This document shows positions 636 through 64,000 of a DNA stretch of 64,000 nt, piece after piece (position 1 is the stretch's first letter; every line of letters starts with the position of its first letter). This DNA is from Candidatus Kaiserbacteria bacterium. GTDB lineage: Bacteria > Patescibacteriota > Minisyncoccia > Phycocordibacterales > UBA2100. The position numbers and the translations under genes are program-made. The notes below the pieces were generated by a model, which had not been told where the DNA came from, searched no databases, and was given only the letters and a program-made list of their open reading frames with translations. Where the stretch lies: NCBI GenBank assembly GCA_016186695.1, contig JACPLC010000001.1, positions 174,706 to 238,705 of the forward strand. The letters are read 5' to 3'.

Positions 636-675
636 GCAAGGTGCCGCACGACGCAACCGAAGCTATAATTGGCCC

Positions 676-13860: not shown

Positions 13861-14046
13861 ATGGCCAGATACGGTACATATGCAGGGCAAAAGGTTCGTC
13901 GCGCGATGCGCGAGATGAAGCAGGGCAAGCTCCGCTCCGGCAGGAGCGGGAAGCGCGTGACCTCGCGCAAACAGGCGATCGCAATCGGGCTTTCGGAAGC
14001 GCGACGCGCAGGTGGCAAGGTGCCGCGTGCTCCGCGAAGCCGCTAG
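13861..14046 (+). CDS. Small basic conserved protein (resembles the about 60-aa DUF6496-type proteins)
   Basis: 61 aa, MARYGTYAGQKVRRAMREMKQGKLRSGRSGKRVTSRKQAIAIGLSEARRAGGKVP. The KxGxLxSG..G.KVTSRKQAIAIGLSEAR pattern matches a widespread small-protein family that I recall as DUF6496. This identification is from memory only. Confidence 0.45.
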   Translation: MARYGTYAGQKVRRAMREMKQGKLRSGRSGKRVTSRKQAIAIGLSEARRAGGKVPRAPRSR

Positions 14047-15968: not shown

Positions 15969-16009
15969 GTATTTGTATGTACTACGCACTACTCACTACT
16001 AACTACATA

Positions 16010-16500: not shown

Positions 16501-16925
16501 GAGTCTTTGAAAGCGGGTAGTTCCGCGGTCACAGGTTCCGAAGATTCTATCGCCTAGTGGCAAGGGGAGTGGCGATTCTCTCGTGAAGACAAGTCTGCGT
16601 GAGAAAGAAACTCCTTCGAGCTTCAAACCGGTGGGGTTATGTACGCTCTTATCGCAGGTGGGAATATGAGGACGTAAAAGGGTTTGGTAGCCCTCCTTGC
16701 AGGTCCGGGCGCTTGTCCGCTCGAAAACTGCGAAGGCGACTCAACGACTAGGAAGAAAGGAGTGTAACGGCGAAAGGTGCCCGCCAAGGCACCTTTTCGT
16801 TATGCATACAAGTATAGCAGCGCGTGCTTGCACCGAGCGAGCGAAGCGAGTCGAGGTGTGGACAAGTGTTTTTCTTTGTTTTCTAACCCAAGCGAGGGGG
16901 AAGTTGTATGCAATGATGGATACAT

Positions 16926-17534
16926 ATGGCGAAATACTTCATCGGTGCGATCGTTATTCTTATCATCGCAATTACCGGCTATTACGCGTGGCAAAATTTC
17001 GGTGCCGCACCCGCTCCCTCTCCTACGCCGGAAGCGCCGATCATGAGCACGTATGCGACCTCTACCTTCTCGATCGCATATCCTTCGACCTACGCTCTCG
17101 ACGACACCTACGCGTACGATCAGTTTGAGGGCAAACCGATTGCAGGAGTGAAGTTCAGCGTACCCATCGCCATGATCGAGGGTACGAATCTTTCAAGCGA
17201 CAGTGGTATATCAGTAGAGTGGCTTCCGCGCGCGAAGAAGTGCACGGGCGACATTTACATTCCCGCCAATGTGAAAGCGTTAGAACTTACCGTCGGCTCG
17301 ACGACGTACTCCGTCGCGACAACAACCGGTGCCGCCGCAGGGAATATCTACGAGGAGCAGGTCTTTGCGGTGAAAGGCAGCTCGCCCTGCACTGCCGTGC
17401 GCTATCTTCTGCACTCGGGGAACATCGGCAACTACCCGCAGGAAGGCGAAGAGGGCGCCGTACGCGAGTTTGACCGCGCGGCACTCTTGCGTGAATTCGA
17501 CTCCATCCGCGATGCACTGGTGTTGATTCCCTAA
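16926..17534 (+). CDS. Hypothetical membrane-anchored or secreted protein
   Basis: N-terminal TM MAKYFIGAIVILIIAITGYYAW, then a 180-aa soluble domain. No motif recognised. Confidence 0.55.
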   Translation: MAKYFIGAIVILIIAITGYYAWQNFGAAPAPSPTPEAPIMSTYATSTFSIAYPSTYALDDTYAYDQFEGKPIAGVKFSVPIAMIEGTNLSSDSGISVEWLPRAKKCTGDIYIPANVKALELTVGSTTYSVATTTGAAAGNIYEEQVFAVKGSSPCTAVRYLLHSGNIGNYPQEGEEGAVREFDRAALLREFDSIRDALVLIP

Positions 17535-17536
17535 GA

Positions 17537-18427
17537 ATGCGCGGCCTTCAATTCTCTACCTCCTCGGCCGCGCTCGTCTTTGCTATCGCACTCGCGTCAC
17601 TCTTTTGGATTGCGCTTTCGGTGAGCGCGATGGAGTCCGACGTTCCGATACCTGTTGAGATCGAAGAGGTGGCCGTGCCCAACACTGCGCACTTTCCGCC
17701 GGCGCAGGATCTGCATGAGTACATCGAGGTGATGGAAGGGTGCAATTACGCCTACGCGGGGGAGTGCGTGCGCTCGTATGCGGGGCCGGGGAGAGAATAC
17801 GCAACGGTCAACCGTCTGCGAAAAGGAATCGTGCTGAAGGTCGGGGGCTCGGTCTTGAACGACCTGCGTGTGTGGTACCGAATTATTTTTGACGAGCCTC
17901 TGCGCTATCCAGAACGAGTTGCGCGGGCGCAGTACGTTGCCGCCGAAGACGTGCGGCACTTTTACAGCAACGGCGTACAGACGCGCGGCTCGCAGGGGAG
18001 TGCCACCCATTCGACTCAGCTCAGGGTCGAGGCATCGACAAGCTCAGCCTCGACGAAGCACATACTCGTCGATCGCTCGGAGCAAATGCTCTATGCCTAC
18101 GAGGGCGAGACGCTCTTTATGCAAGTTTCCATCTCCACGGGTATTCAACTCACTCCGACGCCCCGCGGCGTCTTCACCATTTATAAAAGGACACCCACCC
18201 GCTACATGCAGGGTCCCCTGCCGGACATCAGCGAAAAATATTACGACTTGCCGGGCGTGCCATGGAATCTCTACTTCACCAACGAAGGCGGCGTTATTCA
18301 CGGCGCGTATTGGCACAAAAGTTTTGGCACAAGGTGGTCGAACGGCTGCGTGAACCTCCCGCTTGCCGAGGCGCGCACGCTCTACGAATGGGCCGAAGTC
18401 GGCACCAAAGTCCTCGTCCGCGACTGA
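17537..18427 (+). CDS. L,D-transpeptidase (YkuD/ ErfK family)
   Basis: N-terminal signal anchor. The C-terminal catalytic domain contains the His...Ser-x-Gly-Cys signature (HGAYWHKSFGTRWSNGCVNLP). Confidence 0.8.
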   Translation: MRGLQFSTSSAALVFAIALASLFWIALSVSAMESDVPIPVEIEEVAVPNTAHFPPAQDLHEYIEVMEGCNYAYAGECVRSYAGPGREYATVNRLRKGIVLKVGGSVLNDLRVWYRIIFDEPLRYPERVARAQYVAAEDVRHFYSNGVQTRGSQGSATHSTQLRVEASTSSASTKHILVDRSEQMLYAYEGETLFMQVSISTGIQLTPTPRGVFTIYKRTPTRYMQGPLPDISEKYYDLPGVPWNLYFTNEGGVIHGAYWHKSFGTRWSNGCVNLPLAEARTLYEWAEVGTKVLVRD

Positions 18428-18431
18428 ACCA

Positions 18432-18457
18432 CCGATTCCCCAAACCCAAGATTTGTG
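18432..18457. repeat. Direct repeat copy 1 (ccgattccccaaacccaagatttgtg), second copy at 18994..19019
   Basis: Read directly from the sequence: an identical 26-mer. The match extends to about 30 bp with one mismatch. The two copies bracket the tspO gene. Confidence 0.85.
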
Positions 18458-18881: not shown

Positions 18882-18993
18882 TGTGATGTTCAAACATTTT
18901 GCAAAATGTTGAAATGAAAGATGGGGTGCAGGTGGGGTGCATGGTGGAGGCGCGGGCGTGGGGCGGGGAGGGGTGAGTGGGGATAGCAAGAGC

Positions 18994-19019
18994 CCGATTC
19001 CCCAAACCCAAGATTTGTG
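18994..19019. repeat. Direct repeat copy 2 (ccgattccccaaacccaagatttgtg)
   Basis: Identical to 18432..18457. It lies just upstream of the probable real start (19048) of the methyltransferase gene, at the left edge of the low-GC RM island. Confidence 0.85.
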
Positions 19020-19047
19020 GGATTGGGCATATGATAAAATCGAGTTA

Positions 19048-19887
19048 ATGCCGATACTCACCCAACCACAGAAAGGCAACAAGATCCTCTCGTCTGTTCC
19101 AATAAAGCCATATTTCAAACAAGATAACTTTGTGCTTTATCACGGCGATTCAATTTCGTTGCTCAGTTCGTTGCCGGAAAACTCAATTGACATGATTTTT
19201 GCAGATCCCCCATACAATCTTTCCAACGGAGGGTTCAGTGTTCACGCGGGGCGACGTGTCAGCGTGAATAAAGGAAACTGGGACAAAAGCAATGGATTTA
19301 AAGACGATTACGAGTTTCATTATCGTTGGTTAGAAGCGTGCAGACGCATACTAAAACCACACGGAACCCTCTGGGTGAGCGGCACATATCATTCCATCTA
19401 TCAGTGTGGACACGCCTTGCAGTCACTCGGCTATCACATCCTCAATGACATTTCGTGGTTTAAGCCAAACGCTTCTCCAAATCTCAGCTGCAGATTTTTT
19501 ACTGCAAGCCACGAGACGCTCATTTGGGCCCGAAAAGAAAAGAAAGCAAAACACCATTTTGATTACGATTTAATGAAAGAGGGAGATTGGAGGAGAGATT
19601 TTCTAAAGAAGCCGGGATTACAGATGCGTTCGGTATGGTCAATCGGCACACCTAGACCGGAAGAAAAGAAATACGGGAAACATCCGACTCAAAAACCGCT
19701 GGAGTTATTAAGACGAATTGTACTTGCAAGCACAAAGGTGGACGATATAGTCTTGGATCCATTCACGGGTAGCTCTACAACAGGATTGGCAGCTTCAATG
19801 AATAAGCGAAAATTCATAGGAGTTGATCTTGAAAAAAGCTATCTGGAACTTTCTGTAAAAAGATTTAATGACACGAACAAAACCTGA
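19048..19887 (+). CDS. Type II DNA methyltransferase, beta-class N6-adenine/N4-cytosine (DPPY) methylase
   Basis: Motif IV DMIFADPPYNL precedes motif I VLDPFTGSSTTGLAA (FxGxG), which is the beta-class order. HPTQKPLELLRRIV is typical of N-4/N-6 MTases. The ORF track starts at 18937; internal Met 19048 preferred because upstream is Gly/Arg-rich and overlaps the repeat. The gene is about 42% GC against about 60% for the flanks. Confidence 0.8.
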   Translation: MPILTQPQKGNKILSSVPIKPYFKQDNFVLYHGDSISLLSSLPENSIDMIFADPPYNLSNGGFSVHAGRRVSVNKGNWDKSNGFKDDYEFHYRWLEACRRILKPHGTLWVSGTYHSIYQCGHALQSLGYHILNDISWFKPNASPNLSCRFFTASHETLIWARKEKKAKHHFDYDLMKEGDWRRDFLKKPGLQMRSVWSIGTPRPEEKKYGKHPTQKPLELLRRIVLASTKVDDIVLDPFTGSSTTGLAASMNKRKFIGVDLEKSYLELSVKRFNDTNKT

Positions 19888-19899
19888 CATTCTTTTCGC

Positions 19900-20544
19900 A
19901 TGCAAATAATTACGCGCCCGGTGGCTGTTGAAAATTTGCGCAAGTATATCGGCCAAAATCTGAGAACTTTAGCTGCGGGATTCGGTATCACGACCTACGA
20001 AACTGGCAAACAAAATAAAGGCTGGAAAGGGTTGGTTCTCGAGCGATTAGCGGGGTTGAGCACAAACGTTACCAAAGCTCCGAATGGTCTGACTTTCGAA
20101 CTTAAGTCGGTGGCTTTTCGATTTGTTGGGAAAGATCTTGTTCCTAAGGAGACGATGGCAATAACGATGATTAATCCGGAGGAATTGAAAGCCCACTCAT
20201 TCTTTGAAAGCCATGTTTGGGCAAAACTCAAAGTGGTTGTATTTTGCGCTGTTGAGTGGAGTGGACAAAATGCTCAAAGTGCCAAACTTTTACATGTCGC
20301 TAGTTTAGATTTTGCGGAGGACGACGCACTTATACAGGAAATAAAGGCTGACTACGACCTCATTCGAAATAAGCTCATCAAGCAAGGGTTCAAGGCATTG
20401 ACTGGTAGAGATGGGAAGTGGATTCAGGCACGAACGAAAGGAGTCGGGGGAATAAATCCTCGAACTGGCGCTCGTCGACCGATTACCCGCGCATTTTATG
20501 CTCGAACAAGTTTAGTAAAGAAGATTTTTGAGATAGCGAGTTAG
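19900..20544 (+). CDS. Restriction endonuclease of the MutH/Sau3AI family (GATC-type specificity likely)
   Basis: A MutH-like pattern runs along the length. NKGWKGLVLERLAGL aligns with MutH DKGWIGVLLEIWLG. TFELKS aligns with ELKT. GKWIQARTKGVGG aligns with GEYLQIRPKAANA. RAFYARTSLVKKIF aligns with RGFYLKKNFTSALL. It lies 12 bp downstream of the MTase and has the same low GC. Confidence 0.7.
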   Translation: MQIITRPVAVENLRKYIGQNLRTLAAGFGITTYETGKQNKGWKGLVLERLAGLSTNVTKAPNGLTFELKSVAFRFVGKDLVPKETMAITMINPEELKAHSFFESHVWAKLKVVVFCAVEWSGQNAQSAKLLHVASLDFAEDDALIQEIKADYDLIRNKLIKQGFKALTGRDGKWIQARTKGVGGINPRTGARRPITRAFYARTSLVKKIFEIAS

Positions 20545-42990: not shown

Positions 42991-44646
42991 ATGGCCGGAA
43001 AAAAAGTCATATTCGATCAGGAAGTTCGCACTTCCCTCAAGCGCGGCGTCGATATCGTCGCGGGTGCGGTGAAAGTCACGCTCGGTCCCAAGGGCCGCAA
43101 TGTCGCCCTGGGGAAATCATGGGGCGGTCCTACCATCACCAACGACGGCGTTTCTATCGCCAAGGAAATATCGCTTGAAGACAAATTCGAGGACATGGGC
43201 GCGAGCATTGTAAAAGAGGTGGCGACGAAAACGAATGACAAGGCCGGCGATGGCACCACGACCGCGGTTGTGCTTACGCAAGCGATCGTGCACGAGGGCC
43301 TGAAGCGCACGGCACTTGGTGCAAACGCGATGCTCGTGCGCCGCGGCATCGAGGCGGCGGCAAAAGACGCTGTTGAAGAACTTAAGAAAATGGCAAAGCC
43401 TATCAAGGGCAAGAGCGACATACGGCAGGTTGCCATGATCGCAGCAGAATCCGAAGAGCTTGGCAAAACCATTGCGGAGGTTGTCGAGAAGGTCGGCAAG
43501 GACGGTGTTGTCACCGTAGAGGAAGGCCAGACCACCGCCATCGACTACGAATATGTGGAAGGCATGGAGTTCGACAAGGGCTACGTTTCCGCATACATGA
43601 TAACGAATCCGGAGCGCATGGAGGCTGCGATCAAGGATGCGCCGATACTCATCACTGACAAGAAGATCTCCGGTATCAAAGAGATACTTCCGCTGTTGGA
43701 AAAAATTGCACAATCGGGCGACAGAGATCTCGTCATCATCGCCGACGACGTCGAGGGCGAAGCGCTCGCGACCTTCATCGTCAACAAACTGAAAGGCGCC
43801 TTCAACGTTCTTGCGGTGAAAGCGCCGGGTTATGGCGATCGTAAGAAAGAAATGCTGCAGGATGTCGCGATCACCGTCGGCGGGGAGGTCGTCTCCGAAG
43901 ATCTCGGAACAAAGCTTGAGAATGCCGAGCTCTCCACGCTCGGGCATGCGAATCGCGTCGTTGCCACCAAGGACTCGACGGTCATCGTTGGTGGGAAGGG
44001 GAAGAAAGCCGACATCGAAGCACGCGTCATGTCTTTGCGAAAGCAGCTTGAAAACACCGACTCGAAATTCGATCGCGAGAAATTGGAAGAGCGAATCGCA
44101 AAACTTTCCGGCGGTGTGGCGGTCATCCGCGTCGGTGCTCCGACGGAAACAGAAATGAAATATCTCAAAGACAAGATAGAAGACGCGGTGAACGCGACGA
44201 AGGCAGCGATTGCCGAGGGCATCGTTCCCGGCGGAGGAGCAGCGCTTGCGAAAGTCGCCGAGAAACTTTCAAAAAAGATAAATCCCAAGGAGCACGACGA
44301 ATACACGATTGGCTACCGGATCCTTCTCACCGCGCTTTCCGCTCCGCTCTTGCAGATCGCGGAAAACGCCGGTCGGCAGGATTCCGCGGTCGTTTTGCAG
44401 GAAGTCGTGAAGAAAGGAGGCAGCTTCGGCTTCAATGCGCTCGCCGAATCCGATGAGGAGTCAATCGTCGATATGTACGAAGCGGGCATTATCGATCCGG
44501 TGAAAGTGGCGAGAAGTGGTGTCGAAAACGCCGCCTCCGCCGCTGCCGTACTTCTCACCACAGAAGCAGCCGTCGCCGAAATCCCCGAGAAAAAGAGTAT
44601 GCCCGCAGGAGGCGGAATGCCGGGAGGAATGGGTGACATGGAGTAA
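42991..44646 (+). CDS. groEL: Chaperonin GroEL
   Basis: 551 aa with canonical cpn60 motifs (GPKGRNV, DGTTTA, AVKAPGYGDRKK). C-terminal GGM-type tail (GGGMPGGMGDME). Confidence 0.95.
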   Translation: MAGKKVIFDQEVRTSLKRGVDIVAGAVKVTLGPKGRNVALGKSWGGPTITNDGVSIAKEISLEDKFEDMGASIVKEVATKTNDKAGDGTTTAVVLTQAIVHEGLKRTALGANAMLVRRGIEAAAKDAVEELKKMAKPIKGKSDIRQVAMIAAESEELGKTIAEVVEKVGKDGVVTVEEGQTTAIDYEYVEGMEFDKGYVSAYMITNPERMEAAIKDAPILITDKKISGIKEILPLLEKIAQSGDRDLVIIADDVEGEALATFIVNKLKGAFNVLAVKAPGYGDRKKEMLQDVAITVGGEVVSEDLGTKLENAELSTLGHANRVVATKDSTVIVGGKGKKADIEARVMSLRKQLENTDSKFDREKLEERIAKLSGGVAVIRVGAPTETEMKYLKDKIEDAVNATKAAIAEGIVPGGGAALAKVAEKLSKKINPKEHDEYTIGYRILLTALSAPLLQIAENAGRQDSAVVLQEVVKKGGSFGFNALAESDEESIVDMYEAGIIDPVKVARSGVENAASAAAVLLTTEAAVAEIPEKKSMPAGGGMPGGMGDME

Positions 44647-44685: not shown

Positions 44686-44955
44686 TCACCTGTATGCACT
44701 GCCGCGAAAATCGATGACATCAACGAAGATCGTGCGAGCCTGTGTGTCTATGGAAAAAATTATACGCACCTTGCGGATTCGAATACGGTAGAATCCTTCC
44801 CAGGCACCTGTCAGCCGCTTGATGTTTACCGCAACGTTTTCACCCGATAGTTTTCGAACGGCTTTTCTCACAGACCCGAGCACATAATCGTCTTGTAAAT
44901 GATGATTGGCGAGAAATTTGCTCGCCCTTCTTGAAAGTGATATCTGCCAATCCAC
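44686..44955 (-). CDS. Type II toxin-antitoxin system toxin, RelE/ParE family
   Basis: 89 aa with KFLANHHL...LTGAWEGFYRIRIRKVRIIFSID...IFVDVIDFRG, which is the RelE/ParE fold pattern. About 48% GC, lower than the flanks. Confidence 0.6.
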   Translation of the reverse strand: MDWQISLSRRASKFLANHHLQDDYVLGSVRKAVRKLSGENVAVNIKRLTGAWEGFYRIRIRKVRIIFSIDTQARTIFVDVIDFRGSAYR

Positions 44956-44958
44956 GGT

Positions 44959-45153
44959 CTAGAATCGAGTGCGGATCGATCGCTCGGCGCGGTGTGAGGG
45001 CTTCTTATAGAGTTTTTCGATTTCCCGTTGCTCCTTTTTTGACACGAGCGGCAGGAGCATGCCTCGAATCCGAGCCATCTCTGCCTCGAGCGCTTCGTGC
45101 ACGCTTTTATGTGCCAGCCGTCGTATTTCGTTTTTCAGTGTCGTAGTAGTCAT
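44959..45153 (-). CDS. Putative cognate antitoxin
   Basis: 64-aa ORF immediately upstream of the toxin on the same strand, with a 3-bp gap. Helical, charged. Canonical antitoxin-toxin order. Confidence 0.45.
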   Translation of the reverse strand: MTTTTLKNEIRRLAHKSVHEALEAEMARIRGMLLPLVSKKEQREIEKLYKKPSHRAERSIRTRF

Positions 45154-45330
45154 AATAGTTGCAGTATAGCGTATTTAGATTGTTGTGTCATCTGAATTTC
45201 TCTAAACTGAAATACTCGTTCTCTTTGGAAAACATACATAATCTGTATCTCGCCATGGCATCTCGGCCGAGTCATGGCGACATGGGGCCCCCCTGCCTAC
45301 TGGCAGGCAGGCGTTAAAGATGCGCGATGC

Positions 45331-45348
45331 GCTATCTCATGGGGTTAT
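45331..45348. repeat. Direct repeat copy A (gctatctcatggggttat); copy B at 50318..50335
   Basis: 17 or 18 of 18 bp identical to gctatctcatgg-gttat at 50318..50335. Both are preceded by gcg(n)g. The two copies bracket the 1572-aa ORF. Confidence 0.8.
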
Positions 45349-45549
45349 CCCCTCGGAGTTTAGCCAAAATGTGTCGAAGTCACGCTACTATATTGACGTA
45401 TGCCCGGTAGTGTAATGTGCCTTAGGCTTATACAAACCACGAAAACAAACCACGAACGTATCCAAAGTGCAATAAGTGAGACTTGGTCGCTCACGCCGCG
45501 GCAGCCATGCATGCAGGCCTGCCGCAAAGGCACATTCTACTAACCGGGT

Positions 45550-48500
45550 ATGCCCTCCTCTCGTGTTGCGGCAGGAGTTTTCCTGTTAGCTCCTCTTTTT
45601 TTGGCAGCGGTGCTCGTGCCGCTCCTTGCAGATGCTGCAGGCGATGTGTGTGATACGGCAAGCGAAGCGGCAAAGGGGAAGGTGACTAACGACTGCATCG
45701 CATGCATTACGGTCGTCGAGAACGGCCAACAAGTAAAGAAAGAAGTCGGTGCGATATGCAAAGTAACAGGCGGCGGTGATAAAACTGCCGCGAATTGTGT
45801 GCCCGGCACCAGCCCCACAAATCCTCCTCCCGGTACATGCAAGACGAAATATTGCGTCGGCACAAAATGTTTCGACGCAAATCTGACGACAAAGCCGACG
45901 GAAGGAAGCTGGATTCCGCAGAACACCTCGGACCTCTCGAAGCTCCACAACGACCTTTCGTGGGGAGGCGTGTCGGTGTCGCCGATTTCCTCTGATCAGA
46001 GTCCCATACCGGACAAGTCTTTCTTCGATTCCGCTCAATATTCTGGGTCGGATTTCCAAGGAGCAGACCCATTCAGTCAACCAGACGCGACATCGAAGTA
46101 TTTGCAAGATCTACAAGATCAAGTGGATCGGGCGCAGGCGAACACGCCGAATCCTTCACTCAATCAACCCGCGGAGCCGACAAATTATATTCAGGAAGCT
46201 CTCAGGCGACTGGGTGTCTCGTTTCCGGGCTTGGATGAGCAAGCTGCACAGCTCGAAGCGGTGAGCGATAAGAGTCAGCTGGAGCAGATGGCCAAGCAGC
46301 AGCCGGTTCCTACGCAGAGTACAGGCTTCACTGCATCGGAGATTGACACCAAGCCTCCTGCCGAGCCGGCATGGTTTGATTCTGCCCGCAGATGGATTGC
46401 TCAGCAATTGGGAATCGGGGCTGAGGCTGCAGTACCTAGATTGGTGCCAGACGGGAAAGGGGGTTACCGTCTAGCCCCCGGAACTAACTTTTCAGAAGCG
46501 GATAAAAATCCTCCCCGCTCTAGTGCGAATCAAATCCAAGGATTGGACGGCCCCGCCGTTTACAAGTCTACACATTATAAGAACCCCTCGGGTCTCACTG
46601 GTTCGGGAGCGAAATTTGATGATATTACAATAGCTTGCAATGCGTGTCCCATGGGAACGTCGGGCCAACTTGATTTTCTTGATAAAAGTGGAAATGTCGT
46701 CTACAGCAAACAAATGGTTGTGAAAGAGTGGGGTGACCTTCAGCCAGGAGTCGGAATTGATATTAATACACAAACTGTCCGCGATGCTCAAGCGAAAACG
46801 GGCATTCCTTTTTTGCAGGAAGGTGTCACAGGAACTACACACAGCGGAGGAGTGCGGTTCACACCCGAGGCCGTTTTTCAAGGACGAATTCCCGGTGATG
46901 GGTGGTATGCGGATCGTGCAGCCGTTCAAGTTGCAGAGCAGTACGCGAATGCGCGGAATGCGGGCTATTCTCCCGCTGAAGCCATATCGCAATTGACCAG
47001 TGGACAGGTCACCTACAAGTCGGCGTATGTTTTTGGCAGTGAAGTCCCTTCGCCATTTACGCTCGCGTCTGCAGCACCGGCGCCAAGCGACAGCTATGCG
47101 CCATCGTGGATCGCTTCGACGCCTGGCTTTATTGCTGCGAACACGGCCGGCTCACCAGATGTATCTCCGTTCTCTGCAACGTATGACATCACATCGTACG
47201 GTCCAGCCGCACCGCCTGCCAGCGAAAGTTATCTGCCATCGTGGATAGCGTCGATACCGGGGTTTGATAGCGGCGTCCCTTCTTACGTCACTCCTTTTTC
47301 GCCTAGTGCAGACATCGCCGAGTACGAACTATCGCCCGAATATTTCGGTCCGAGTGGAGCAGAAAACATTAGCGTAGTGTTGCCTGATCAATTTCCTGAC
47401 AGTTTGATGCACGGCGACACTGCTGAAGCGATGCGTCTGATCGAGGAAGGAGCTTTAGGAAAGTTGCCCGAGCCACAGATTGTTGCTCAATTGTCGGGTG
47501 GAACCACGCGGGGCATCGGCCTTTTGAGGTCAGATGCTTCAGGACTTCCTGCGAATTTCGATTCGTCCGCCTTTGATTCCGGAGTTTCTCTTACCCAGGA
47601 GGAAGTTCAGACGGCACTGGACACAGCTGAAGCCACGCGGCTTGCCGAGAGCGACGCGCTCGCTTCAGGGTTTCCAGGTCTTACTCCCCTTACTCCGCAG
47701 GAGATTTCGGATGCTTACGAACGGTATGGCAAAGAACAGGCGCGACTTGCTCTCGAAGGCTACAAGGCTCAAGACCTAGCACTCGATACTGGAAGCGGGA
47801 TAAGCTATCCGATAGATTGGGACAAACTCGCGTTCACCGACAGTGGATTCGACAAGCCGCAGGATTTTGCAGGCATAACGGCAGATGAATCCCAGCGTAC
47901 GACCCGCGATCTCGCAAATTTCACTATTGATGAGTCACAACGAACAGCTCCGTCAACACCATATGATGTCGCCGGAGTGAATGCCGATGAGTTTCAACGA
48001 ACGTCGCAGGATCTCGCGGCTATCACAGAAGACGAGTCTCAGCGAACAGCGCGGCAGGAACCAGACCTGCGAGGGATTACGGAGGATGAATCTCAACGAA
48101 CTGCTCCCCAAGAATCAAAGGTTGCCGATTTAACTAAGTGCGCAAGCGAGTCGTGTGTCGGGGGAGAGATAATAGGAGACGAAAGAAGTGTTCCTCTGAC
48201 AGATGAGCAGTTAGCCGCGAAGGTCGCGGCAGAGGAGGAACGAATTTTTAATGAAGAGCAAGCGCGACTCGCGCAGATCGTCGAGAAGGCACAAAAGGCA
48301 GGGGACGACGTTAAGGCGGCGGCGGAGAAAGTAAAAGCTGCAGGCAAAGATTTTCTTGCCGGAGGAAGCCCCCAAGGTTTAATTGATGCTGGAAATGAGC
48401 TTAAAGCGAAAGTGGCAGAATATGAGAAGGCGTACAAGGAACTGAAATCCTCGGGAGTACTCTCAAGCAGCGAACTAAAAAAAATTGATGCTGATCGAGC

Positions 48501-50268
48501 GTTAGTTCAGAACGACCTCAATGAAATCTCTACGTGGAAAGGGCGTCTTGAAACGGCTGTCAACGTAGCGAGTAAAGTATCAATTGCGGGGGACAGATTC
48601 GGCTCGACATTTGGAAATCCCGAGTTGGGTCGCCAAGCCTACGAGCAGGCGGTGGAGACTGTCAGACAAAACCTCAGGAAACCCGAAAATCAGGCGCAGA
48701 TCAATTCTGCAACTGAAAGAATCATGGGACCCGTAGGTCGATTGGCGGCGATTCCTTCGTACGAACCTAAGTCCTACGTCCCTCCGCCCTCGTCGGAACT
48801 TCAATTGGCTGCAAACCCCGGTGGCCCGACATTCGTGTTTACGGATCCGTACGAATCGACTTCCGACAGTCCACCACTCGACTTTTCTTCCGGAGCGGTT
48901 GCCCAAGAGACGCCTATTCCGCCGCTAAGTCTTGATTATGACGATTACGGATTGGCCGAAATCCGACAATACCAGGCCGAGCAAGCGGCATCCCAGTACG
49001 ATTCCTATGGCGACGAGGCAATTCGACAGTACTACGCCGAACAAATCAGAGAAAATCAGGAGGCCTACGTAGCATTCAGCAAAGTAGAGTTTCCCAAGAC
49101 TTGGCCGTATCCGATAAGCGAGATGCCCGACTACTTTGCGGAAAGTGGCCGCCCCACACCAGCGTTGTCCTTGCTCGACCAGTATGCAGAGGGTGGCGCG
49201 CCGGACTTGGCGCAGATCGCGCGCGACGCAGGGCTGGCACAGGAAGACTTGAGAGACTCAAGCTCTGGCCTGCTTTACCCTCCGGCTGAGAGTTCGGAAG
49301 AAAGAAAATGGCCGGTTCTCGTGTACACCGATCCAGACGCTGAATATAACGTAGCCGCGCAGAAAGCTGGGGAAGAACGTGCGATAGCTCTGGCGGACGC
49401 AGAAGAGAAATCCGCGTTCGATAGGTGGTACGAGAACCTTGTCTTGGATGGCAAATATGATCCGAGTCCATACGAAGTGCCGGCGGGAGCAGTCTCGCTT
49501 CCGGAGGAGATTTGGGATCGAGTAGCCCTCAATCGACCTTCGTCAGATCATGAGTCGGATGAACCATATCGACCCTCTTCCGAACCTGGGCGGGATGCGC
49601 CGAGCCCAGAATTTCTTAGGCAACAGGAACAAATTGCACTCGGCCTCAACCCATCTGAAGGATTCCAAAGGGGAGGTCTCGAGCCTGGCATTACTCCTAC
49701 CAAAGTTGTGCCTGAATTAGTATCGCGGCAAGTTCCAGAAAACATAGAATCGACGCAAGCCGATGGAACGCCAAAATCCCCTCTGTCGTTGGCTGCAGCG
49801 CAACCCTCGACAGCACCAACCAGATCTGCCGACGCGAAGCCTGTGGAGGCGCGCGCTCCGCTGCCGATCGAGGTCCCTACCGTTGGCGATGCGAAGACTC
49901 CATATGACTTGTGGGGGAAAGATCTGCCCTCCAAGGAAATTAGAAGCAAGTTGTACAACCAGCTTGCGGAGGAGGGATTTGTCAACGTCGAGCGCTACAC
50001 AGGAACGGGCGACCAGAACCGCGCTTTAATAGACGGCCTGAAAGAAAGACAGCAAGCGACTGCCGTTCCGAATCCCTATGCGCGCGCTCAGAAAGTCTAT
50101 TCGGAAGGAGATTCGATCGTTGACTTCTTGAGCGCAGGCAACATGAAGAGTGATTTTGGGAGCCGAAGATCGTTGTTCGACAGCGTGGTTGGCTACGGTA
50201 CGTATACCGGCACGGCGTCACAAAACCAAGCGCTTCTTGAACTCTTACGCAAGAGAGGAGATCAGTAA
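45550..50268 (+). CDS. Giant (1572 aa) secreted protein, hypothetical: N-terminal Cys-rich module, internal (D/E)ESQRT x5 repeats, coiled-coil segment, C-terminal tandem YTGTxxQNxAL motifs
   Basis: Signal peptide MPSSRVAAGVFLLAPLFLAAVLVPLLADA. Ten Cys in the first 90 mature residues. SYxPSWIASxPGF appears twice. ADESQRT, IDESQRT, ADEFQRT, EDESQRT and EDESQRT lie at about 47880..48110. The coiled-coil AAKVAAEEERIFNEEQARLAQIVEKAQKAG lies at about 48230..48330. The C-terminus carries YTGTGDQNRALIDGLKERQ and YTGTASQNQALLELLRKRG. GC is about 46-53% against about 60% for core genes. Confidence 0.75.
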   Translation: MPSSRVAAGVFLLAPLFLAAVLVPLLADAAGDVCDTASEAAKGKVTNDCIACITVVENGQQVKKEVGAICKVTGGGDKTAANCVPGTSPTNPPPGTCKTKYCVGTKCFDANLTTKPTEGSWIPQNTSDLSKLHNDLSWGGVSVSPISSDQSPIPDKSFFDSAQYSGSDFQGADPFSQPDATSKYLQDLQDQVDRAQANTPNPSLNQPAEPTNYIQEALRRLGVSFPGLDEQAAQLEAVSDKSQLEQMAKQQPVPTQSTGFTASEIDTKPPAEPAWFDSARRWIAQQLGIGAEAAVPRLVPDGKGGYRLAPGTNFSEADKNPPRSSANQIQGLDGPAVYKSTHYKNPSGLTGSGAKFDDITIACNACPMGTSGQLDFLDKSGNVVYSKQMVVKEWGDLQPGVGIDINTQTVRDAQAKTGIPFLQEGVTGTTHSGGVRFTPEAVFQGRIPGDGWYADRAAVQVAEQYANARNAGYSPAEAISQLTSGQVTYKSAYVFGSEVPSPFTLASAAPAPSDSYAPSWIASTPGFIAANTAGSPDVSPFSATYDITSYGPAAPPASESYLPSWIASIPGFDSGVPSYVTPFSPSADIAEYELSPEYFGPSGAENISVVLPDQFPDSLMHGDTAEAMRLIEEGALGKLPEPQIVAQLSGGTTRGIGLLRSDASGLPANFDSSAFDSGVSLTQEEVQTALDTAEATRLAESDALASGFPGLTPLTPQEISDAYERYGKEQARLALEGYKAQDLALDTGSGISYPIDWDKLAFTDSGFDKPQDFAGITADESQRTTRDLANFTIDESQRTAPSTPYDVAGVNADEFQRTSQDLAAITEDESQRTARQEPDLRGITEDESQRTAPQESKVADLTKCASESCVGGEIIGDERSVPLTDEQLAAKVAAEEERIFNEEQARLAQIVEKAQKAGDDVKAAAEKVKAAGKDFLAGGSPQGLIDAGNELKAKVAEYEKAYKELKSSGVLSSSELKKIDADRALVQNDLNEISTWKGRLETAVNVASKVSIAGDRFGSTFGNPELGRQAYEQAVETVRQNLRKPENQAQINSATERIMGPVGRLAAIPSYEPKSYVPPPSSELQLAANPGGPTFVFTDPYESTSDSPPLDFSSGAVAQETPIPPLSLDYDDYGLAEIRQYQAEQAASQYDSYGDEAIRQYYAEQIRENQEAYVAFSKVEFPKTWPYPISEMPDYFAESGRPTPALSLLDQYAEGGAPDLAQIARDAGLAQEDLRDSSSGLLYPPAESSEERKWPVLVYTDPDAEYNVAAQKAGEERAIALADAEEKSAFDRWYENLVLDGKYDPSPYEVPAGAVSLPEEIWDRVALNRPSSDHESDEPYRPSSEPGRDAPSPEFLRQQEQIALGLNPSEGFQRGGLEPGITPTKVVPELVSRQVPENIESTQADGTPKSPLSLAAAQPSTAPTRSADAKPVEARAPLPIEVPTVGDAKTPYDLWGKDLPSKEIRSKLYNQLAEEGFVNVERYTGTGDQNRALIDGLKERQQATAVPNPYARAQKVYSEGDSIVDFLSAGNMKSDFGSRRSLFDSVVGYGTYTGTASQNQALLELLRKRGDQ

Positions 50269-50317
50269 AATCGCTGCGAGTGGGCCGAGGGGTGCTATAC
50301 CCCGTGAGGTGACGCGG

Positions 50318-50335
50318 GCTATCTCATGGGTTATA
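50318..50335. repeat. Direct repeat copy B (gctatctcatgggttata)
   Basis: See 45331..45348. It lies 11 bp upstream of the lemA start codon. Confidence 0.8.
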
Positions 50336-50345
50336 CTGGCTGTCT

Positions 50346-50909
50346 ATGACGACGACAGGGTGGATTATTTTTGGGATCGTGGCGGTGGGTGTGCTCTGGG
50401 TCATCTGGGCATACAATCGTTTCGTACAGCTTACCAATCGCTCGGAGGAGGCATGGTCTGACATCGACGTGCAGCTGAAGCGCCGCTACGACCTCATTCC
50501 AAATATCGTCGAGACGGTGAAAGGCTACATGCAGCACGAGGCGGGAACGCTCCAGAAGGTGACTGATGCCCGCACAAAGGCAATGGGTGCGCAGAGTGTC
50601 GGCGAGCACGCAGCCGCCGAGAACATGCTCACGGGTGCGCTGAAGACCCTGTTTGCGGTCGCAGAAAATTATCCCAACCTGAAGGCGAACGAGAACTTCG
50701 TAGAGCTCCAGCGAGAGCTTTCGGATACCGAGAACAAAATTCAGGCGGCACGTCGCTTCTACAACAGCGTCGTGATTGATCTGCAAAACGCACTCGAACA
50801 ATTTCCCACGAATCTCATCGGCAATACGTTTGGCTTCAAGACGCGCGAATTCTTCCAGCTCGAGGCAGGGGAGGAGGCTGCGCGCCAGCCGGTCAAGGTT
50901 AGTTTCTAG
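50346..50909 (+). CDS. lemA: LemA family membrane protein
   Basis: N-terminal TM GWIIFGIVAVGVLWVIWAYNRF, then the LemA helical signature (WSDIDVQLKRRYDLIPNIVETVKGYMQHE). Confidence 0.8.
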   Translation: MTTTGWIIFGIVAVGVLWVIWAYNRFVQLTNRSEEAWSDIDVQLKRRYDLIPNIVETVKGYMQHEAGTLQKVTDARTKAMGAQSVGEHAAAENMLTGALKTLFAVAENYPNLKANENFVELQRELSDTENKIQAARRFYNSVVIDLQNALEQFPTNLIGNTFGFKTREFFQLEAGEEAARQPVKVSF

Positions 50910-53070: not shown

Positions 53071-53112
53071 TCATTGAGCAAAGGGGTGAATCTCTATATA
53101 CTCTTTATGTAC

Positions 53113-53197
53113 GGAGGGTTCGCATAGTGGTCTAGTGCGCCGCTTTGGAGAAGCGGTGTGCCGCAAGGCACCGAGAGTTCGAATCTCTCACCCTCCG
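53113..53197 (+). tRNA. tRNA-Ser (anticodon GGA), long variable arm
   Basis: GGAGGGT acceptor stem pairs with ACCCTCC, followed by discriminator G. D-loop AGTGGTCTAGT. Anticodon stem-loop CCGCT-TTGGAGA-AGCGG gives anticodon GGA. A 16-nt variable arm (TGTGCCGCAAGGCACC) and T-arm GAGAGTTCGAATCTCTC. No encoded CCA. The ORF track reports spurious ORFs 53135..53491 and 53145..53474 over it. Confidence 0.8.
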
Positions 53198-53204
53198 CCC
53201 CGAT

Positions 53205-58352: not shown

Positions 58353-58692
58353 ACGTCTGCGTTAGGCAGTCGCTGTGTGCCGCAAGGCGCATAGAGGAAA
58401 GTCCGGACACAGGCTCCTCAAAGGAGCAGCAGGGTAGCGGGTAACGCCCGTCCGCCGCGAGGCGAGAGATGCGAACAGTGACGCCAAGGCTGAAAGGCCA
58501 AGGGCTCCTCCGGGAGTAATCACATCGAAAGGTGTGGGTGCAACGGCAAAACTCTTACTTCTGTGCAAGGCCGTGTCCAGCCGCAATTTTCAATTGAAAT
58601 TGCTGCTGGAAGAGCCGCTTGACCCTGAGAGTAATCGAAGGGCTAGATAGATGATTGTCCTCGACAGAATCCGGCTTAATTACGCAGACAAA
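58353..58692 (+). ncRNA. rnpB: RNase P RNA (bacterial type A)
   Basis: The universally conserved P4 strands are present: GAGGAAAGTCCGGACAC at about 58394..58410 and ACAGAATCCGGCTTA at about 58665..58679. P1 pairing joins ACGTCTGCGT (58353..58362) with ACGCAGAC (58682..58689). A GNRA-rich core (GGTAACGCCC, GCGAGAGATG) lies between. A terminator hairpin follows. Confidence 0.8.
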
Positions 58693-58716
58693 ATCCCCCG
58701 CAAGGGGGATTTTGTA
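58691..58716 (+). terminator. Rho-independent terminator after rnpB
   Basis: AAAATCCCCCGCAAGGGGGATTTTG: a CCCCC-gcaa-GGGGG stem with a T-run. Confidence 0.7.
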
Positions 58717-62875: not shown

Positions 62876-64000
62876 ATGAACATCCGGAATTTTTCCATCA
62901 TTGCACATATTGATCATGGAAAGTCGACGCTTGCCGACCGGATGCTTGAGATGACAGGCACGATCGAGCCACGGCGCATGCAGGAACAGGTACTTGATAG
63001 GATGGAGTTGGAGCGCGAGCGGGGCATCACCATCAAAATGGCGCCCGTACGCATGGTATGGAAATACAAGAATCAAGAATCAAGAATCAAGAATCGTGAT
63101 TCGGCATTCGATATTCGTGATTCGTCGGATTCAGAATATATTCTGAATCTGATTGATACGCCGGGACATGTCGATTTTTCATATGAAGTTTCGCGGGCGC
63201 TCTCCGCCGTAGAAGGCGTCGTGCTTCTTGTGGATGCAACACAGGGTGTGGAGGCCCAGACGCTCTCAGTGCTTTCGGTAGCGCGTTCACTCAATCGTGT
63301 AATCGTACCGGTTGTTTCGAAAATCGATGCGCCGAACGCACGGGTAGGTGAGATCGTGAGCGAACTCTCGCTTCTTCTCGGGTGTCCGGAGGAGCATGTA
63401 TTAAAAGCTTCCGGAAAGACGGGAGAAGGCGTGCGCGATATCCTCGAAGCGATAGTCGTGCGGATCCCGGAGCCGCGATCGTCCGGACAAAAACCCCAAG
63501 CACTCGTATTCGACTTCGGCTATTCGGACCATCGGGGCGTCATTGTGTATGCACGCGTTTTCGGCGGGGCTCTGAAAAAGGGCGATACGCTCCGTCTTGT
63601 TGCGGCCGACGCATCATTTACTGCGCTTGAGGTCGGCATACTTACACCGGATGACGTGCCGTGTCCGGAACTTGCAGAAGGAGAGATCGGCTACATCGTG
63701 ACGGGTATCAAAAAACCCGGAGTCGCTTCTGTGGGCGACACCGTGACATCCGCGCGCGATAGCGCGCCGGCGCTTCCCGGCTACCGTGCACCGACTCCGG
63801 TCATCTGGGCATCGGTCTATCCGGAGTCGCAGGATGATTTGCCCGTTCTGCGGCAATCGCTCGAGCGTTTGCGTCTTTCCGATTCTTCGCTTTCGTACGA
63901 AGAGGAGAGTTCCGGCATCATGGGGAAGGGTTTCCGCTGCGGTTTCTTGGGAATGCTCCATCTCGAAATTGTTATCGAGCGGCTACGACGTGAATTCAAC
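62876..64000 (+). CDS. lepA: Elongation factor 4 (LepA), 3'-truncated by the window end; carries an 18-aa low-complexity insertion in the G domain
   Basis: MNIRNFSIIAHIDHGKSTLADR (G1), DTPGHVDFSYEVSR (G3), SKID (G4). It is not in the ORF track because no stop lies in the window. The insertion NQESRIKNRDSAFDIRDSSDSE is encoded by (caagaat)x4 plus gattcg repeats at 63067..63130. Confidence 0.9.
   Translation, partial: MNIRNFSIIAHIDHGKSTLADRMLEMTGTIEPRRMQEQVLDRMELERERGITIKMAPVRMVWKYKNQESRIKNRDSAFDIRDSSDSEYILNLIDTPGHVDFSYEVSRALSAVEGVVLLVDATQGVEAQTLSVLSVARSLNRVIVPVVSKIDAPNARVGEIVSELSLLLGCPEEHVLKASGKTGEGVRDILEAIVVRIPEPRSSGQKPQALVFDFGYSDHRGVIVYARVFGGALKKGDTLRLVAADASFTALEVGILTPDDVPCPELAEGEIGYIVTGIKKPGVASVGDTVTSARDSAPALPGYRAPTPVIWASVYPESQDDLPVLRQSLERLRLSDSSLSYEEESSGIMGKGFRCGFLGMLHLEIVIERLRREFN

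Follow-up and report, generated by a model that had tools for sequence, protein, structure and literature searches.

The segment from 45154 to 50345 of a 64-kb stretch of DNA from a Candidatus Kaiserbacteria bacterium (referred to as the window, to which all positions given without a further label belong) carries one very long open reading frame (ORF) between groEL and lemA, which an earlier reading of the letters, termed here the original prediction, had proposed to be horizontally acquired cargo. Taken as a whole, the evidence is best explained by a resident, fast-diversifying Kaiserbacteria locus, which we consider probable, and not by a recently integrated island. In the Kaiserbacteria, the slot between groEL and the lemA-htpX genes appears to be reserved for a single large mosaic protein that is secreted and bears modules directed at peptidoglycan, and we propose with moderate confidence that the giant gene of the window encodes a new, highly divergent secreted wall protein that contains a double-psi beta-barrel (DPBB) and resides in a conserved variable slot. 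Of greatest interest within these coordinates is a 150-nt structured element that lies between a duplicated start codon at the head of the giant gene, and there is a real chance that this element represents something unusual. The slot is defined by the following genes:

42991..44646, + strand: groEL (Pfam Cpn60_TCP1), the conserved upstream anchor of the slot.
45550..50268, + strand: giant ORF of 1572 amino acids (aa), the positional orthologue of the Kaiserbacteria groEL-lemA slot proteins.
50346..50909, + strand: lemA (Pfam LemA, E = 3e-59), the conserved downstream anchor of the slot, with synteny in 80 loci.

For comparison, species-representative genomes were scanned with LemA as an anchor, yielding 80 loci against which the window proteins were run by tblastn; comparison loci are numbered with the prefix L and homologous proteins with the prefix P. 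The placement of the giant gene between conserved groEL and lemA genes is borne out by Pfam and by synteny, with GroES and GroEL encoded upstream and LemA, a Hydrolase_2 protein and an M48 peptidase encoded downstream. The linkage of groEL, lemA and the M48 gene is deep within the Paceibacteria, where the gap between groEL and lemA ranges from 28 bp to >9.8 kb. Homologous occupants are found on the same strand at eight other Kaiserbacteria-like loci, within a slot that follows GroES and GroEL and precedes LemA and M48, and in L003-L007 the gene order runs RNase J, SBP5, SecG, GroES, GroEL, giant gene, LemA, M48. A single large protein encoded on the lemA strand fills the slot in the window, L003-L007, L008, L009, L010, L011 and L018, the occupants being 832-2315 aa long and each bearing a signal peptide. 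The slot is empty (gap of 28-700 bp) in ~30 loci, mostly from more distant Paceibacteria but including L014. In the close relatives L008 and L009, with GroEL proteins 92-93% identical to that of the window, one would have expected from the original prediction to find groEL contiguous with lemA and a single copy of an 18-mer that flanks the giant ORF; rather, both slots are filled and neither contains the repeat.

The slot occupants are mosaics in which modules are mixed, namely a signal peptide followed by an N-terminal module with eight cysteines (the 8-Cys N-module), an RlpA-like DPBB core, PG_binding_1 and C-terminal helical modules, with long low-complexity linkers separating the modules and a Zeta-toxin-like stretch present in one occupant. 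The giant protein of the window is annotated, in identical form, in a Candidatus Kaiserbacteria metagenome-assembled genome, and a word-indexed search with it returned five homologues, which share 29-46% identity over part of the N-terminal third. The window protein has its core domain in common with the occupants of L003/L004, L005 and L006/L007, and its N-module and one C-terminal module in common with those of L008 and L009. The occupants of L003 and L005 bear another C-terminal module that is also present in L010, L011 and L018, and an internal domain of the L008 occupant recurs in L010; the L010, L011 and L018 occupants are tied to the slot family via such other modules. The variable remainder of the slot protein would be under diversifying pressure. 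Additional genes are observed beside the slot at individual loci: L005 contains an extra 329-aa Cys-rich secreted ORF (8825-9814) ahead of its giant gene, L006/L007 a 402-aa ORF behind it (13469-14677 in L006), and L006 a serine recombinase 3 kb downstream of the slot (16796-18436), which has no counterpart in the window.

Two considerations temper the view of a resident locus. The GroEL of L014 is as similar to that of the window as the GroEL of L003 (84%), yet the slot of L014 is empty, and the giant gene has therefore been lost or gained within the wider clade. In addition, relatives may have exchanged modules or whole occupants horizontally. To judge from these arrangements, the slot is really variable on a deep timescale.

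The original prediction described a low-GC segment among core genes with a GC content of about 60%, neither of which agrees with measurement. The GC content is 0.537 for the giant ORF, 0.548 for the window, 0.558 for groEL and 0.557 for lemA, which places the giant ORF at the 42nd percentile of all 4.7-kb windows, and 500-nt windows range from 0.50 to 0.56 within the ORF and from 0.54 to 0.57 in the flanks. Only the GC content at third codon positions (GC3) is lower, at 0.512 compared with 0.613 +/- 0.074 for 38 window ORFs (-1.4 standard deviations, sd), and several genes are equally low. Codon usage, which the original prediction had proposed to examine, exhibits no deviation, with a synonymous codon-usage distance of 0.132 for the giant ORF that falls within the 0.138 +/- 0.036 of ordinary genes. 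In each of the nine genomes measured (9/9), the GC3 of the slot gene is 1.3-3.2 sd under that of its neighbours and tracks the GC of its own genome, with an overall GC equal to or above that of the neighbours and a normal codon-usage distance. The GC3 dip, being common to all nine slot genes, is therefore a property of the gene family and no mark of foreign or recently imported DNA. Mildly AT-richer parts are confined to the toxin gene (GC 0.47) of an adjacent toxin-antitoxin (TA) pair and to the spacer (0.49) upstream of the giant gene.

It is thus against a background of ordinary GC and codon usage that an acquired cassette has to be considered, in which the giant gene, alone or together with the TA pair, was inserted between groEL and lemA and the 17-18-bp repeats represent an attachment-site (att) duplication or scars. 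We regard such a cassette as highly improbable, even though a repeat pair does bracket the gene, the TA pair is adjacent, the GC3 of the giant gene is 1.4 sd low, groEL adjoins lemA in many Paceibacteria as well as in L014, and the core domain has hardly any counterpart in public data. In eight related loci the slot holds homologous occupants, all without the repeat and with a GC that is not low; the repeat motif serves as promoter context ahead of unrelated genes, as described below; and neither an integrase nor a relaxase is found among the ORFs examined between 40.4 and 53.1 kb, where a search for such genes had been suggested. Indeed, the same family at the same locus with uniform GC, and recurrence of the motif ahead of unrelated genes, are the two findings that the original prediction itself had named as incompatible with acquired cargo. 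A tRNA gene as the integration target was also considered and rejected, as the sole tRNA, Ser-GGA at 53112, is located 2.8 kb beyond the segment, behind the lemA, hydrolase, M48 and regulator genes.

The true compositional outlier of the window lies elsewhere, at 18937-20544, where a DNA methylase (N6_N4_Mtase, E = 2e-57) and a MutH/Sau3AI-like endonuclease are encoded by genes with a GC of 0.45 and a GC3 of 0.43-0.46. A 26-nt exact direct repeat (CCGATTCCCCAAACCCAAGATTTGTG) is present at 18432-18457 and 18994-19019, near the left edge of this region. A stronger case for acquired DNA can be made here than for the segment between groEL and lemA.

The repeats that bracket the giant ORF are located at the following sites:

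45331..45348, + strand: motif copy A, GCTATCTCATGGGGTTAT, with a degenerate -10 box (TTATCC) behind it and no nearby ATG.
50309..50337, + strand: lemA promoter-like site GTGACG-17-TATACT, with its end 8 nt ahead of the ATG and with motif copy B (50318-50335) inside it.

The pair is real as a 13+4-nt repeat, with the 13-mer GCTATCTCATGGG being exact at 45331 and 50318 and the four nucleotides TTAT following only after a 1-nt indel. With 86 maximal exact direct repeats of at least 13 nt in the 64-kb window, a 13-mer pair alone is unremarkable, and a pure chance match with no shared function has to be weighed. Such a match would also accommodate the lack of a proper -10 box and start codon at copy A and the observation that the motif is not kept at the orthologous positions in L008 or L009. 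However, across 2.14 Mb of related sequence the motif TATCTCAYGGG exceeds its expected frequency 12-fold (24 observed versus 2.04 expected) and usually abuts a -10 box 6-10 nt ahead of an ATG, at least eight instances have TAnnnT-N5-12-ATG and a long ORF behind them, and both window copies adopt the extended form CTATCTCATGGG. Chance alone is therefore an unlikely source of the pair.

The arrangement CTATCTCAYGGG(G)-TAnnnT-N5-12-ATG is found ahead of long ORFs in L009, L112, L113, L122 and L180 as well as ahead of lemA in the window, and four of these long ORFs, all but that of L009, resemble an FAD-type oxidoreductase, an OMP-decarboxylase-like protein, a GH1 glycosidase and an amidinotransferase, as read by eye from their N-terminal sequences. 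Since the motif recurs ahead of unrelated genes, the repeat is assigned to promoter context and not to an att duplication. These observations support a reading of the repeats as two instances of a lineage-typical promoter context, composed of CTATCTCAYGGG(G), a -10 box and a leaderless-type ATG, in which copy B would be part of the lemA promoter and copy A a degenerate instance upstream of the giant gene. Thus, of the two possibilities raised by the original prediction, the shared regulatory element is retained, with copy B placed in the lemA promoter, and attachment-site duplication or recombination scarring is abandoned, given the frequency of the motif (24 versus 2 expected) and its absence from the junctions in relatives. 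In the slots of relatives, the 13-mer is absent around the giant genes and the spacers are short; on viral contigs, the 18-mer has one match, which is within chance expectation. The 3' half of copy A belongs to sequence that is also conserved in the upstream region of L008. The weak point of the promoter assignment is copy A, which is without a usable -10 box or ATG, and the similarity of the pair could be partly due to chance. More generally, a gene in these genomes may be bracketed by short repeats that are simply promoter motifs.

The layout at these sites is of a leaderless type, with a -10 box (TACTAT, TATACT, TATAAT) located 6-10 nt before the ATG and no Shine-Dalgarno sequence. Such sites are observed in the window (45383-45402 and 50332-50348), L003 (16735-16757), L008 (1565-1586 and 5680-5686) and L009 (7405-7426 and 9978-9997), and in the relatives a -10 box lies at this distance from the ATG of the lemA and giant genes as well. 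It appears that leaders are absent or almost absent from genes of these genomes, which apparently combine the recurrent CTATCTCAYGGG upstream motif with a -10 box 6-10 nt ahead of the ATG. At L005 25680-25710, TTATCTCATGGGG runs straight into GGGGAGGAAAGTCCGG, which resembles the 5' end of RNase P RNA; from this instance, TATCTCAYGGG may mark transcription starts at GGG, besides acting as an upstream element.

At the start of the giant gene, three overlapping features can be distinguished:

45383..45402, + strand: presumed ancestral leaderless-type promoter and start TACTAT-N8-ATG, homologous to CGCTACTATATAGGCATATG directly ahead of the coding sequence (CDS) of the L008 occupant.
45400..45549, + strand: 150-nt structured inverted-repeat element between the duplicated ATG (covariance-model match 45399-45555, 157 bits).
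45400..45543, + strand: 47-codon upstream ORF that runs through the element in frame with the giant ORF, with its TAA 6 nt before the giant ATG.

The element is bounded by the inverted repeats CCCGGTAGTGTAATGTGCCTT and AAGGCACATTCTACTAACCGG (repeat family I4), with arms of 21-25 nt, and GTATGCCC is present on both sides (45398 and 45548). Window positions 45344-45402 align with the sequence directly ahead of the L008 CDS (…CGCTACTATAT..ATG, followed by CC…), and 150 nt intervene before the ATG at 45550, while the orthologous starts of L008 and L009 are without the element and represent empty sites. The RNA of the window element is predicted to fold with a minimum free energy of -58.8 kcal/mol (z = -4.5), sequestering the first two bases of the start codon. 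Of six independent Logan assemblies, which match the window with 100% identity, each either ends at 45428/45430 or begins at 45525. As a Logan contig represents a path through a graph of 31-mers (PMC12424806), these breaks mean that 30 nt at either end of the element are shared with differently flanked copies in the same samples.

Two simpler descriptions of this site were rejected. The 8-bp GTATGCCC is not the target duplication of a classical MITE (a miniature transposable element with inverted repeats), as its CCC corresponds to the first bases of the element coinciding with the Pro codon of the gene, and other copies share only (T/C)ATG. Nor is the right end of the element native promoter sequence, as its presence in L011 had suggested, since the covariance model reveals two diverged whole copies in L011. 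Rfam searches with the spacer and the element gave nothing at the gathering thresholds, and at E <= 10 only a 13.9-bit Mg-II match on the opposite strand. In the literature on leaderless genes, MITEs, palindromic repeats and start codons of Patescibacteria and the candidate phyla radiation, nothing comparable was found, and the family is probably undescribed.

The element belongs to a multi-copy, structured family associated with start codons, for which both filled and empty orthologous sites exist. A metagenome scan that used the inner 10+10 nt of the element arms as its signature gave at least 120 loci among the matches listed, including 77 non-redundant copies, mostly with the same 120-123-nt core, and the family comprises >100 copies in groundwater metagenomes. 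The left side is almost always (T/C)ATG, often located behind a -10 box or a few nucleotides after an upstream stop codon, and the right side is almost always GGG(T/C)ATG, which is followed by a long ORF in 66/73 copies. A right-hand CATG is observed only where the left side is also CATG; as the ATG is in addition part of a conserved helix, duplication and pairing are inseparable. The orientation relative to the downstream gene is fixed in all copies, and ~93% of them reside at a true start codon, both at leaderless-type promoters and inside operons. According to Pfam, the downstream ORFs begin with the true N-termini of S13, SecY, RNase III, MreB, FtsZ, ClpB, SecA, NusG, SHMT and RuvX; the element thus marks the starts of essential genes such as secY, ftsZ, mreB, secA, rpsM and nusG.

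The distribution of the family is patchy. The covariance model identifies one copy in the window, two in L011 and none in 81 other Paceibacteria loci (1.35 Mb including the window and L011), compared with ~100 copies in 0.64 Mb of metagenome loci, where up to four co-oriented copies are found within 6.3 kb. The element-bearing contigs have a GC like that of the window, and one of them shares an 87%-identical orthologue with it; no copies were found on viral contigs. The ClpB genes at L125 (element at 9827-9981) and L147 (3715-3873) are ~87% identical over their first 60 residues and both bear the element, the interiors of which are far more diverged than the genes and contain different internal hairpin sequences. 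This suggests either fast evolution of the element or independent insertion at the same start codon.

The consensus structure calculated with RNAalifold consists of a 25-bp outer helix, which joins the first AUG to a UAU overlapping the real AUG, and an internal hairpin. In an alignment of 40 sequences, 96.6% of cells are paired, compared with 30-42% when the partners are slid, and eight pairs (60 cells) exhibit double changes, a number reached in 0/500 shuffles. The two diverged copies in L011 have a different inner helix that is still complementary, and three conserved G.U pairs are valid on the mRNA-sense strand only. The frame opened by the upstream ATG remains open to a TAA or TGA 9 nt before the real ATG in 35/65 copies, that of the window included, and ends in an ATGA overlap in 9 more, such that 44/65 are open in all. 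The distance from ATG to ATG is 146-153 nt across copies. A conserved leader peptide was rejected, as indel variants shift the frame and lead to two different C-terminal peptides.

We consider the element to be selfish and MITE-like, and to persist at start codons by regenerating them. The original start of the giant gene (ATG 45400, behind the TACTAT box) would have been split from its CDS by a 150-nt palindrome that ends in a second ATG (45550). Transcribed from the ancestral promoter, the element would form the 5' end of the mRNA, where the 25-bp outer helix would bring the first AUG into pairing with the bases that directly precede the real AUG. Ribosomes reading the upstream frame could unwind this helix and re-initiate at the real AUG, rendering the insertion tolerable; alternatively, RNA processing could provide a route to downstream expression. 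As in MITEs, the element is short (~150 nt), ends in inverted repeats and has no ORF for a transposase, its numerous copies have unrelated flanks, and orthologous sites exist both filled and empty. Several observations fit this scheme poorly. No longer, transposase-bearing version with the same ends was found in 0.78 Mb of element-bearing loci, early stops interrupt the upstream frame in 21/65 copies, the covariation of the two arms would also be possible if one protein recognised both ends, and ten inner helix pairs are fixed by the search pattern and carry no evidential weight.

The same data can be read in favour of a primarily functional cis-acting RNA, be it a 5' leader, a thermosensor, a processing site or a ribosome-landing module that serves many genes. 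Covarying secondary structure together with a fixed position and orientation in 5' leaders is what characterizes a structured leader, and the strictly fixed orientation, the location at true start codons in ~93% of copies, the compensatory changes in both the outer helix and the internal hairpin, the G.U pairs restricted to the mRNA-sense strand, the very stable fold over the start codon and the close co-oriented copies all point in this direction. The downstream genes, however, form no coherent regulon, spanning translation, secretion, division, chaperones and metabolism; a single copy in the 64-kb window, two diverged ones in L011 and none in the 81 other loci is a patchy occurrence; orthologues in relatives with 92-93% identical GroEL are without the element; and arms that are nearly identical have different flanks within the same samples. 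These are hallmarks of a mobile repeat, and no Rfam family corresponds to the element. We hold a primarily functional RNA to be possible, yet doubtful. We put forward, with comparable reserve, that the family constitutes an undescribed class of repeat for leaderless-type start codons, which inserts or is retained only between a duplicated AUG, pairs the two AUGs with each other in the 25-bp helix and permits expression by re-initiation or processing, and may thereby represent a mobile, self-contained translation-initiation module that has spread across the housekeeping genes of some Patescibacteria. Were the element mobile, it would illustrate how selfish DNA can invade very compact genomes while sparing their genes; were it functional, it would be a translation-initiation leader of a new kind.

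The giant protein downstream of the element is composed of the following parts:

45550..45879, + strand: signal-peptide-like N-terminus MPSSRVAAGVFLLAPLFLAAVLVPLLADA (residues 1-29) and 8-Cys N-module (residues 30-110), from sequence reading and the family signature.
46432..47019, + strand: conserved core (residues ~295-490), a putative divergent RlpA-type double-psi beta-barrel followed by a helical extension.
47071..47265, + strand: duplicated 60-nt unit, APxxSxSYxPSWIASxPGF, with copies at 47071 and 47206 (75% identity, repeat family D1).
47884..48102, + strand: five (D/E)E(S/F)QRT repeats (repeat family D2), four DESQRT and one DEFQRT.
48187..48699, + strand: Ala/Glu/Lys-rich stretch (residues ~880-1050), probably helical or coiled coil, from sequence reading only.
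49861..50265, + strand: C-terminal tandem helical module, 2 x ~65 aa, with YTGTxxQNxAL, one copy of which is shared with the occupants of L008, L009 and L013.

Much of this architecture had been anticipated. The 1572-aa ORF has a Cys-rich N-module, with eight Cys within residues 34-107, its N-terminus resembles a signal peptide, consistent with the predicted secretion, and the C-terminal YTGTxxQNxAL motif is duplicated in the translation; of the five repeats given as (D/E)ESQRT, four are DESQRT, but the fifth is DEFQRT. The L008 and L009 occupants have the N-module as well, as do P0010 and, weakly, P0004/P0005; the word-indexed search with this module returned only P0010 (a 204-aa fragment). 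The C-terminal module is 46-52% identical to those of the L008, L009 and L013 occupants by tblastn and BLASTP; the word-indexed search for homologues of this module returned nothing, and a hint of DUF3597 remained sub-threshold (E = 0.071). There are no paralogues of the giant protein within the window.

The core shares up to 46% identity with P0002-P0006 and is very rare, with only four clusters among 1.8 billion representatives. As the original prediction stated, no Pfam family recognises the protein, and searches with the whole protein and six segments at E <= 10 gave nothing beyond the sub-threshold DUF3597 and noise; a remote relationship of the core to DPBB domains emerges, however, from a profile search. 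Searched against 1.84e9 representatives, the core profile matched four family proteins and, weakly, three others, two of which (P0007 and P0009) are 'lytic transglycosylase' proteins with tandem DPBB_1 domains (DPBB_1 E = 1e-50 and 1e-46). The library-wide E-values of these two matches are 2.4e-5 and 1.3e-4 over profile positions 49-151. The motifs of the slot core align with those of the RlpA-type DPBB, with Y...G.TGSGEKF facing Y...G.TASGE.F, AS.LYPIGT facing AH..YPFGT, VNDWG facing VNDRGP, and ADL facing LDLS. Related modules are found in other occupants: that of L009 contains PG_binding_1 (E = 1e-18), and that of L008 a plainer DPBB-like stretch (ATLYY...GDIIYIKNPDTGKS...VGDVCPAC...IDLTP) that is 59% identical to a stretch in L010.

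Together, these relationships suggest, with moderate confidence, a secreted protein associated with the surface or wall, in which a divergent RlpA-like module binds or cleaves glycans and the remainder evolves fast. The protein would be exported by Sec and stay at the cell surface or wall, where the DPBB module could bind or cleave the glycan strands of peptidoglycan, either of its own cell or of a host cell, the bacterium presumably being episymbiotic. As these organisms are thought to live attached to cells, the slot protein is a candidate for envelope remodelling or host contact. This assignment has to contend with several facts. It depends on remote profile matches of ~40 bits, and neither the whole protein nor the core segment reaches the gathering threshold of DPBB_1 (PF03330). 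Searches of PDB sequences with the core and the C-terminal module gave chance matches only (E ~ 0.7-0.8), and AlphaFold2 models are unusable, with mean confidence (pLDDT) values of 37.7 for the core (4-sequence alignment) and 41.1 for the C-terminal module (single sequence). Secretion and targeting to the cell wall are themselves deduced. In addition, the acidic position of the VND motif is Asp in P0002-P0006 (VNDWG) but Glu in the window protein (VKEWG). This Asp corresponds to the catalytic residue of RlpA, as described for the Pseudomonas protein. With Glu in place of the Asp of VND(R/W)G, catalysis by the window protein is therefore uncertain.

The substitution of the candidate catalytic Asp also leaves room for a giant protein that acts as an adhesin, as an S-layer-like scaffold or as a polymorphic toxin directed at neighbours, with the DPBB-like core being merely structural or involved in binding. 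Sequence of low complexity, repeats or helical stretches without homologues make up >60% of the protein, and the combination of a constant N-terminus with a variable C-terminus is reminiscent of polymorphic toxins. The homologue P0004 (2546 aa, from another assembly) has a partial match to Zeta_toxin (PF06414, E = 2.8e-6, residues 1663-1754), and some slot occupants may carry toxin-like modules. The Zeta-like stretch is, however, partial and restricted to a single protein, no immunity-like gene is present behind the giant gene, where lemA follows directly, and the recurring accessory domains of the occupants are the cell-wall modules PG_binding_1 and DPBB. A role other than that of an enzyme is thus conceivable, although we do not favour it over a glycan-directed wall protein.

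Between groEL and the start of the giant gene lie the TA pair and a spacer:

44686..44955, - strand: ParE/RelE-type toxin gene, 89 aa (PF05016 ParE_toxin, marginal at 23.3 bits compared with the cut-off of 23.0 bits).
44959..45153, - strand: putative antitoxin gene encoding 64 aa, located 3 nt upstream of the toxin gene and named from the gene arrangement.
45154..45399, no strand assigned: spacer from the TA pair to the ancestral start of the giant gene, partly ancestral, with stretches shared with the L009 and L008 spacers.

The RelE/ParE pair of the original prediction stands in part, as the toxin reaches the ParE_toxin cut-off and is AT-richer, but the 64-aa ORF has no match to a Pfam or NCBIfam family. 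NCBIfam RelE/YafQ matches to the toxin are weak and below their cut-offs. Neither toxin nor antitoxin has a counterpart in 86 related loci by tblastn, and the pair appears to be a genuine small cassette that was inserted in this lineage only, at the groEL-proximal edge of the slot. At the same edge, L008 has an unrelated overlapping 74/81-aa pair (800-1266, +), the toxin-like product of which is weakly ParE-like (E = 0.049), which suggests that the groEL-proximal junction is a hot spot for small addiction-type cassettes. The spacer shares AATCTGTATCTCGC...ATCTCGGC with L009 and GGTTATCCCCT...CGCTACTATAT...ATGCC with the L008 start region.

Elsewhere in the window, two further large ORFs are present, neither of which encodes a paralogue of the giant protein: that at 625-3861 encodes 1078 aa with a Zn_peptidase match and has a GC3 of 0.50, as low as that of the giant gene, and that at 6201-13262 encodes 2353 aa with Big_5, CarboxypepD_reg and PG_binding_1 repeats. 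An 88-nt exact direct repeat (15228-15315 and 15372-15459, offset 144 nt) resides within a 648-aa ORF (14043-15989, -) that has no Pfam family, and the heptamer CAAGAAT is arrayed in tandem three times at 63067-63088. The sole Rfam or ARAGORN matches in the window are tRNA-Ser(GGA) at 53112-53200 and a class A RNase P RNA at 58354-58694 (126 bits).

Compared with known systems, the locus resembles genomic islands with att repeats in that a gene lies between conserved genes, flanked by a short direct repeat and adjacent to a TA pair, in a slot that is empty in many distant relatives. It differs in that no integrase is seen, the composition does not deviate, the repeat is a promoter motif and homologous occupants are present clade-wide. 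The TA pair is similar to type II ParE/RelE cassettes in consisting of an 89-aa toxin and a 64-aa gene 3 nt away, and in being lineage-specific and slightly AT-richer, but the antitoxin has no recognisable family, the score of the toxin is marginal and nothing was found to connect the pair with mobility of the giant gene. With the RlpA-family DPBB_1 domains the slot core shares a motif-by-motif alignment, the best profile matches outside its own family and a cell-wall gene context, the gene for the Hydrolase_2 cell-wall hydrolase adjoining lemA. In contrast to those domains, it lies below the Pfam threshold, inside a mosaic protein of 1500-2500 aa, has a conserved LVPDGKGGY N-terminal extension of ~60 aa and a helical C-terminal extension of ~50 aa, and in the window protein has Glu at the position of the VND-motif Asp.

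The start-codon element is similar, but distinct, to the Correia elements of Neisseria and to ERIC sequences. Like these, it is ~150 bp long, multi-copy and present or absent between relatives, has long terminal inverted repeats that yield a long RNA hairpin, and would be transcribed with neighbouring genes. Correia and ERIC elements, however, insert either way round, at TA or intergenic sites, whereas the present element has one orientation, is located between a duplicated start codon in ~93% of copies and forms a helix that pairs the two AUGs. Mycobacterial interspersed repetitive units (MIRU) and the Rickettsia palindromic element (RPE) are tolerated in operons or genes by means of a frame that reads through, which is reminiscent of the 44/65 copies that keep the upstream frame open. 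Unlike MIRU, the element is neither tandem nor arranged as a variable-number tandem repeat, and unlike RPE, it is not translated into the host protein, as an in-frame stop precedes the real ATG. In contrast to both, its peptide frame is not conserved, and the two ATGs are held 146-153 nt apart.

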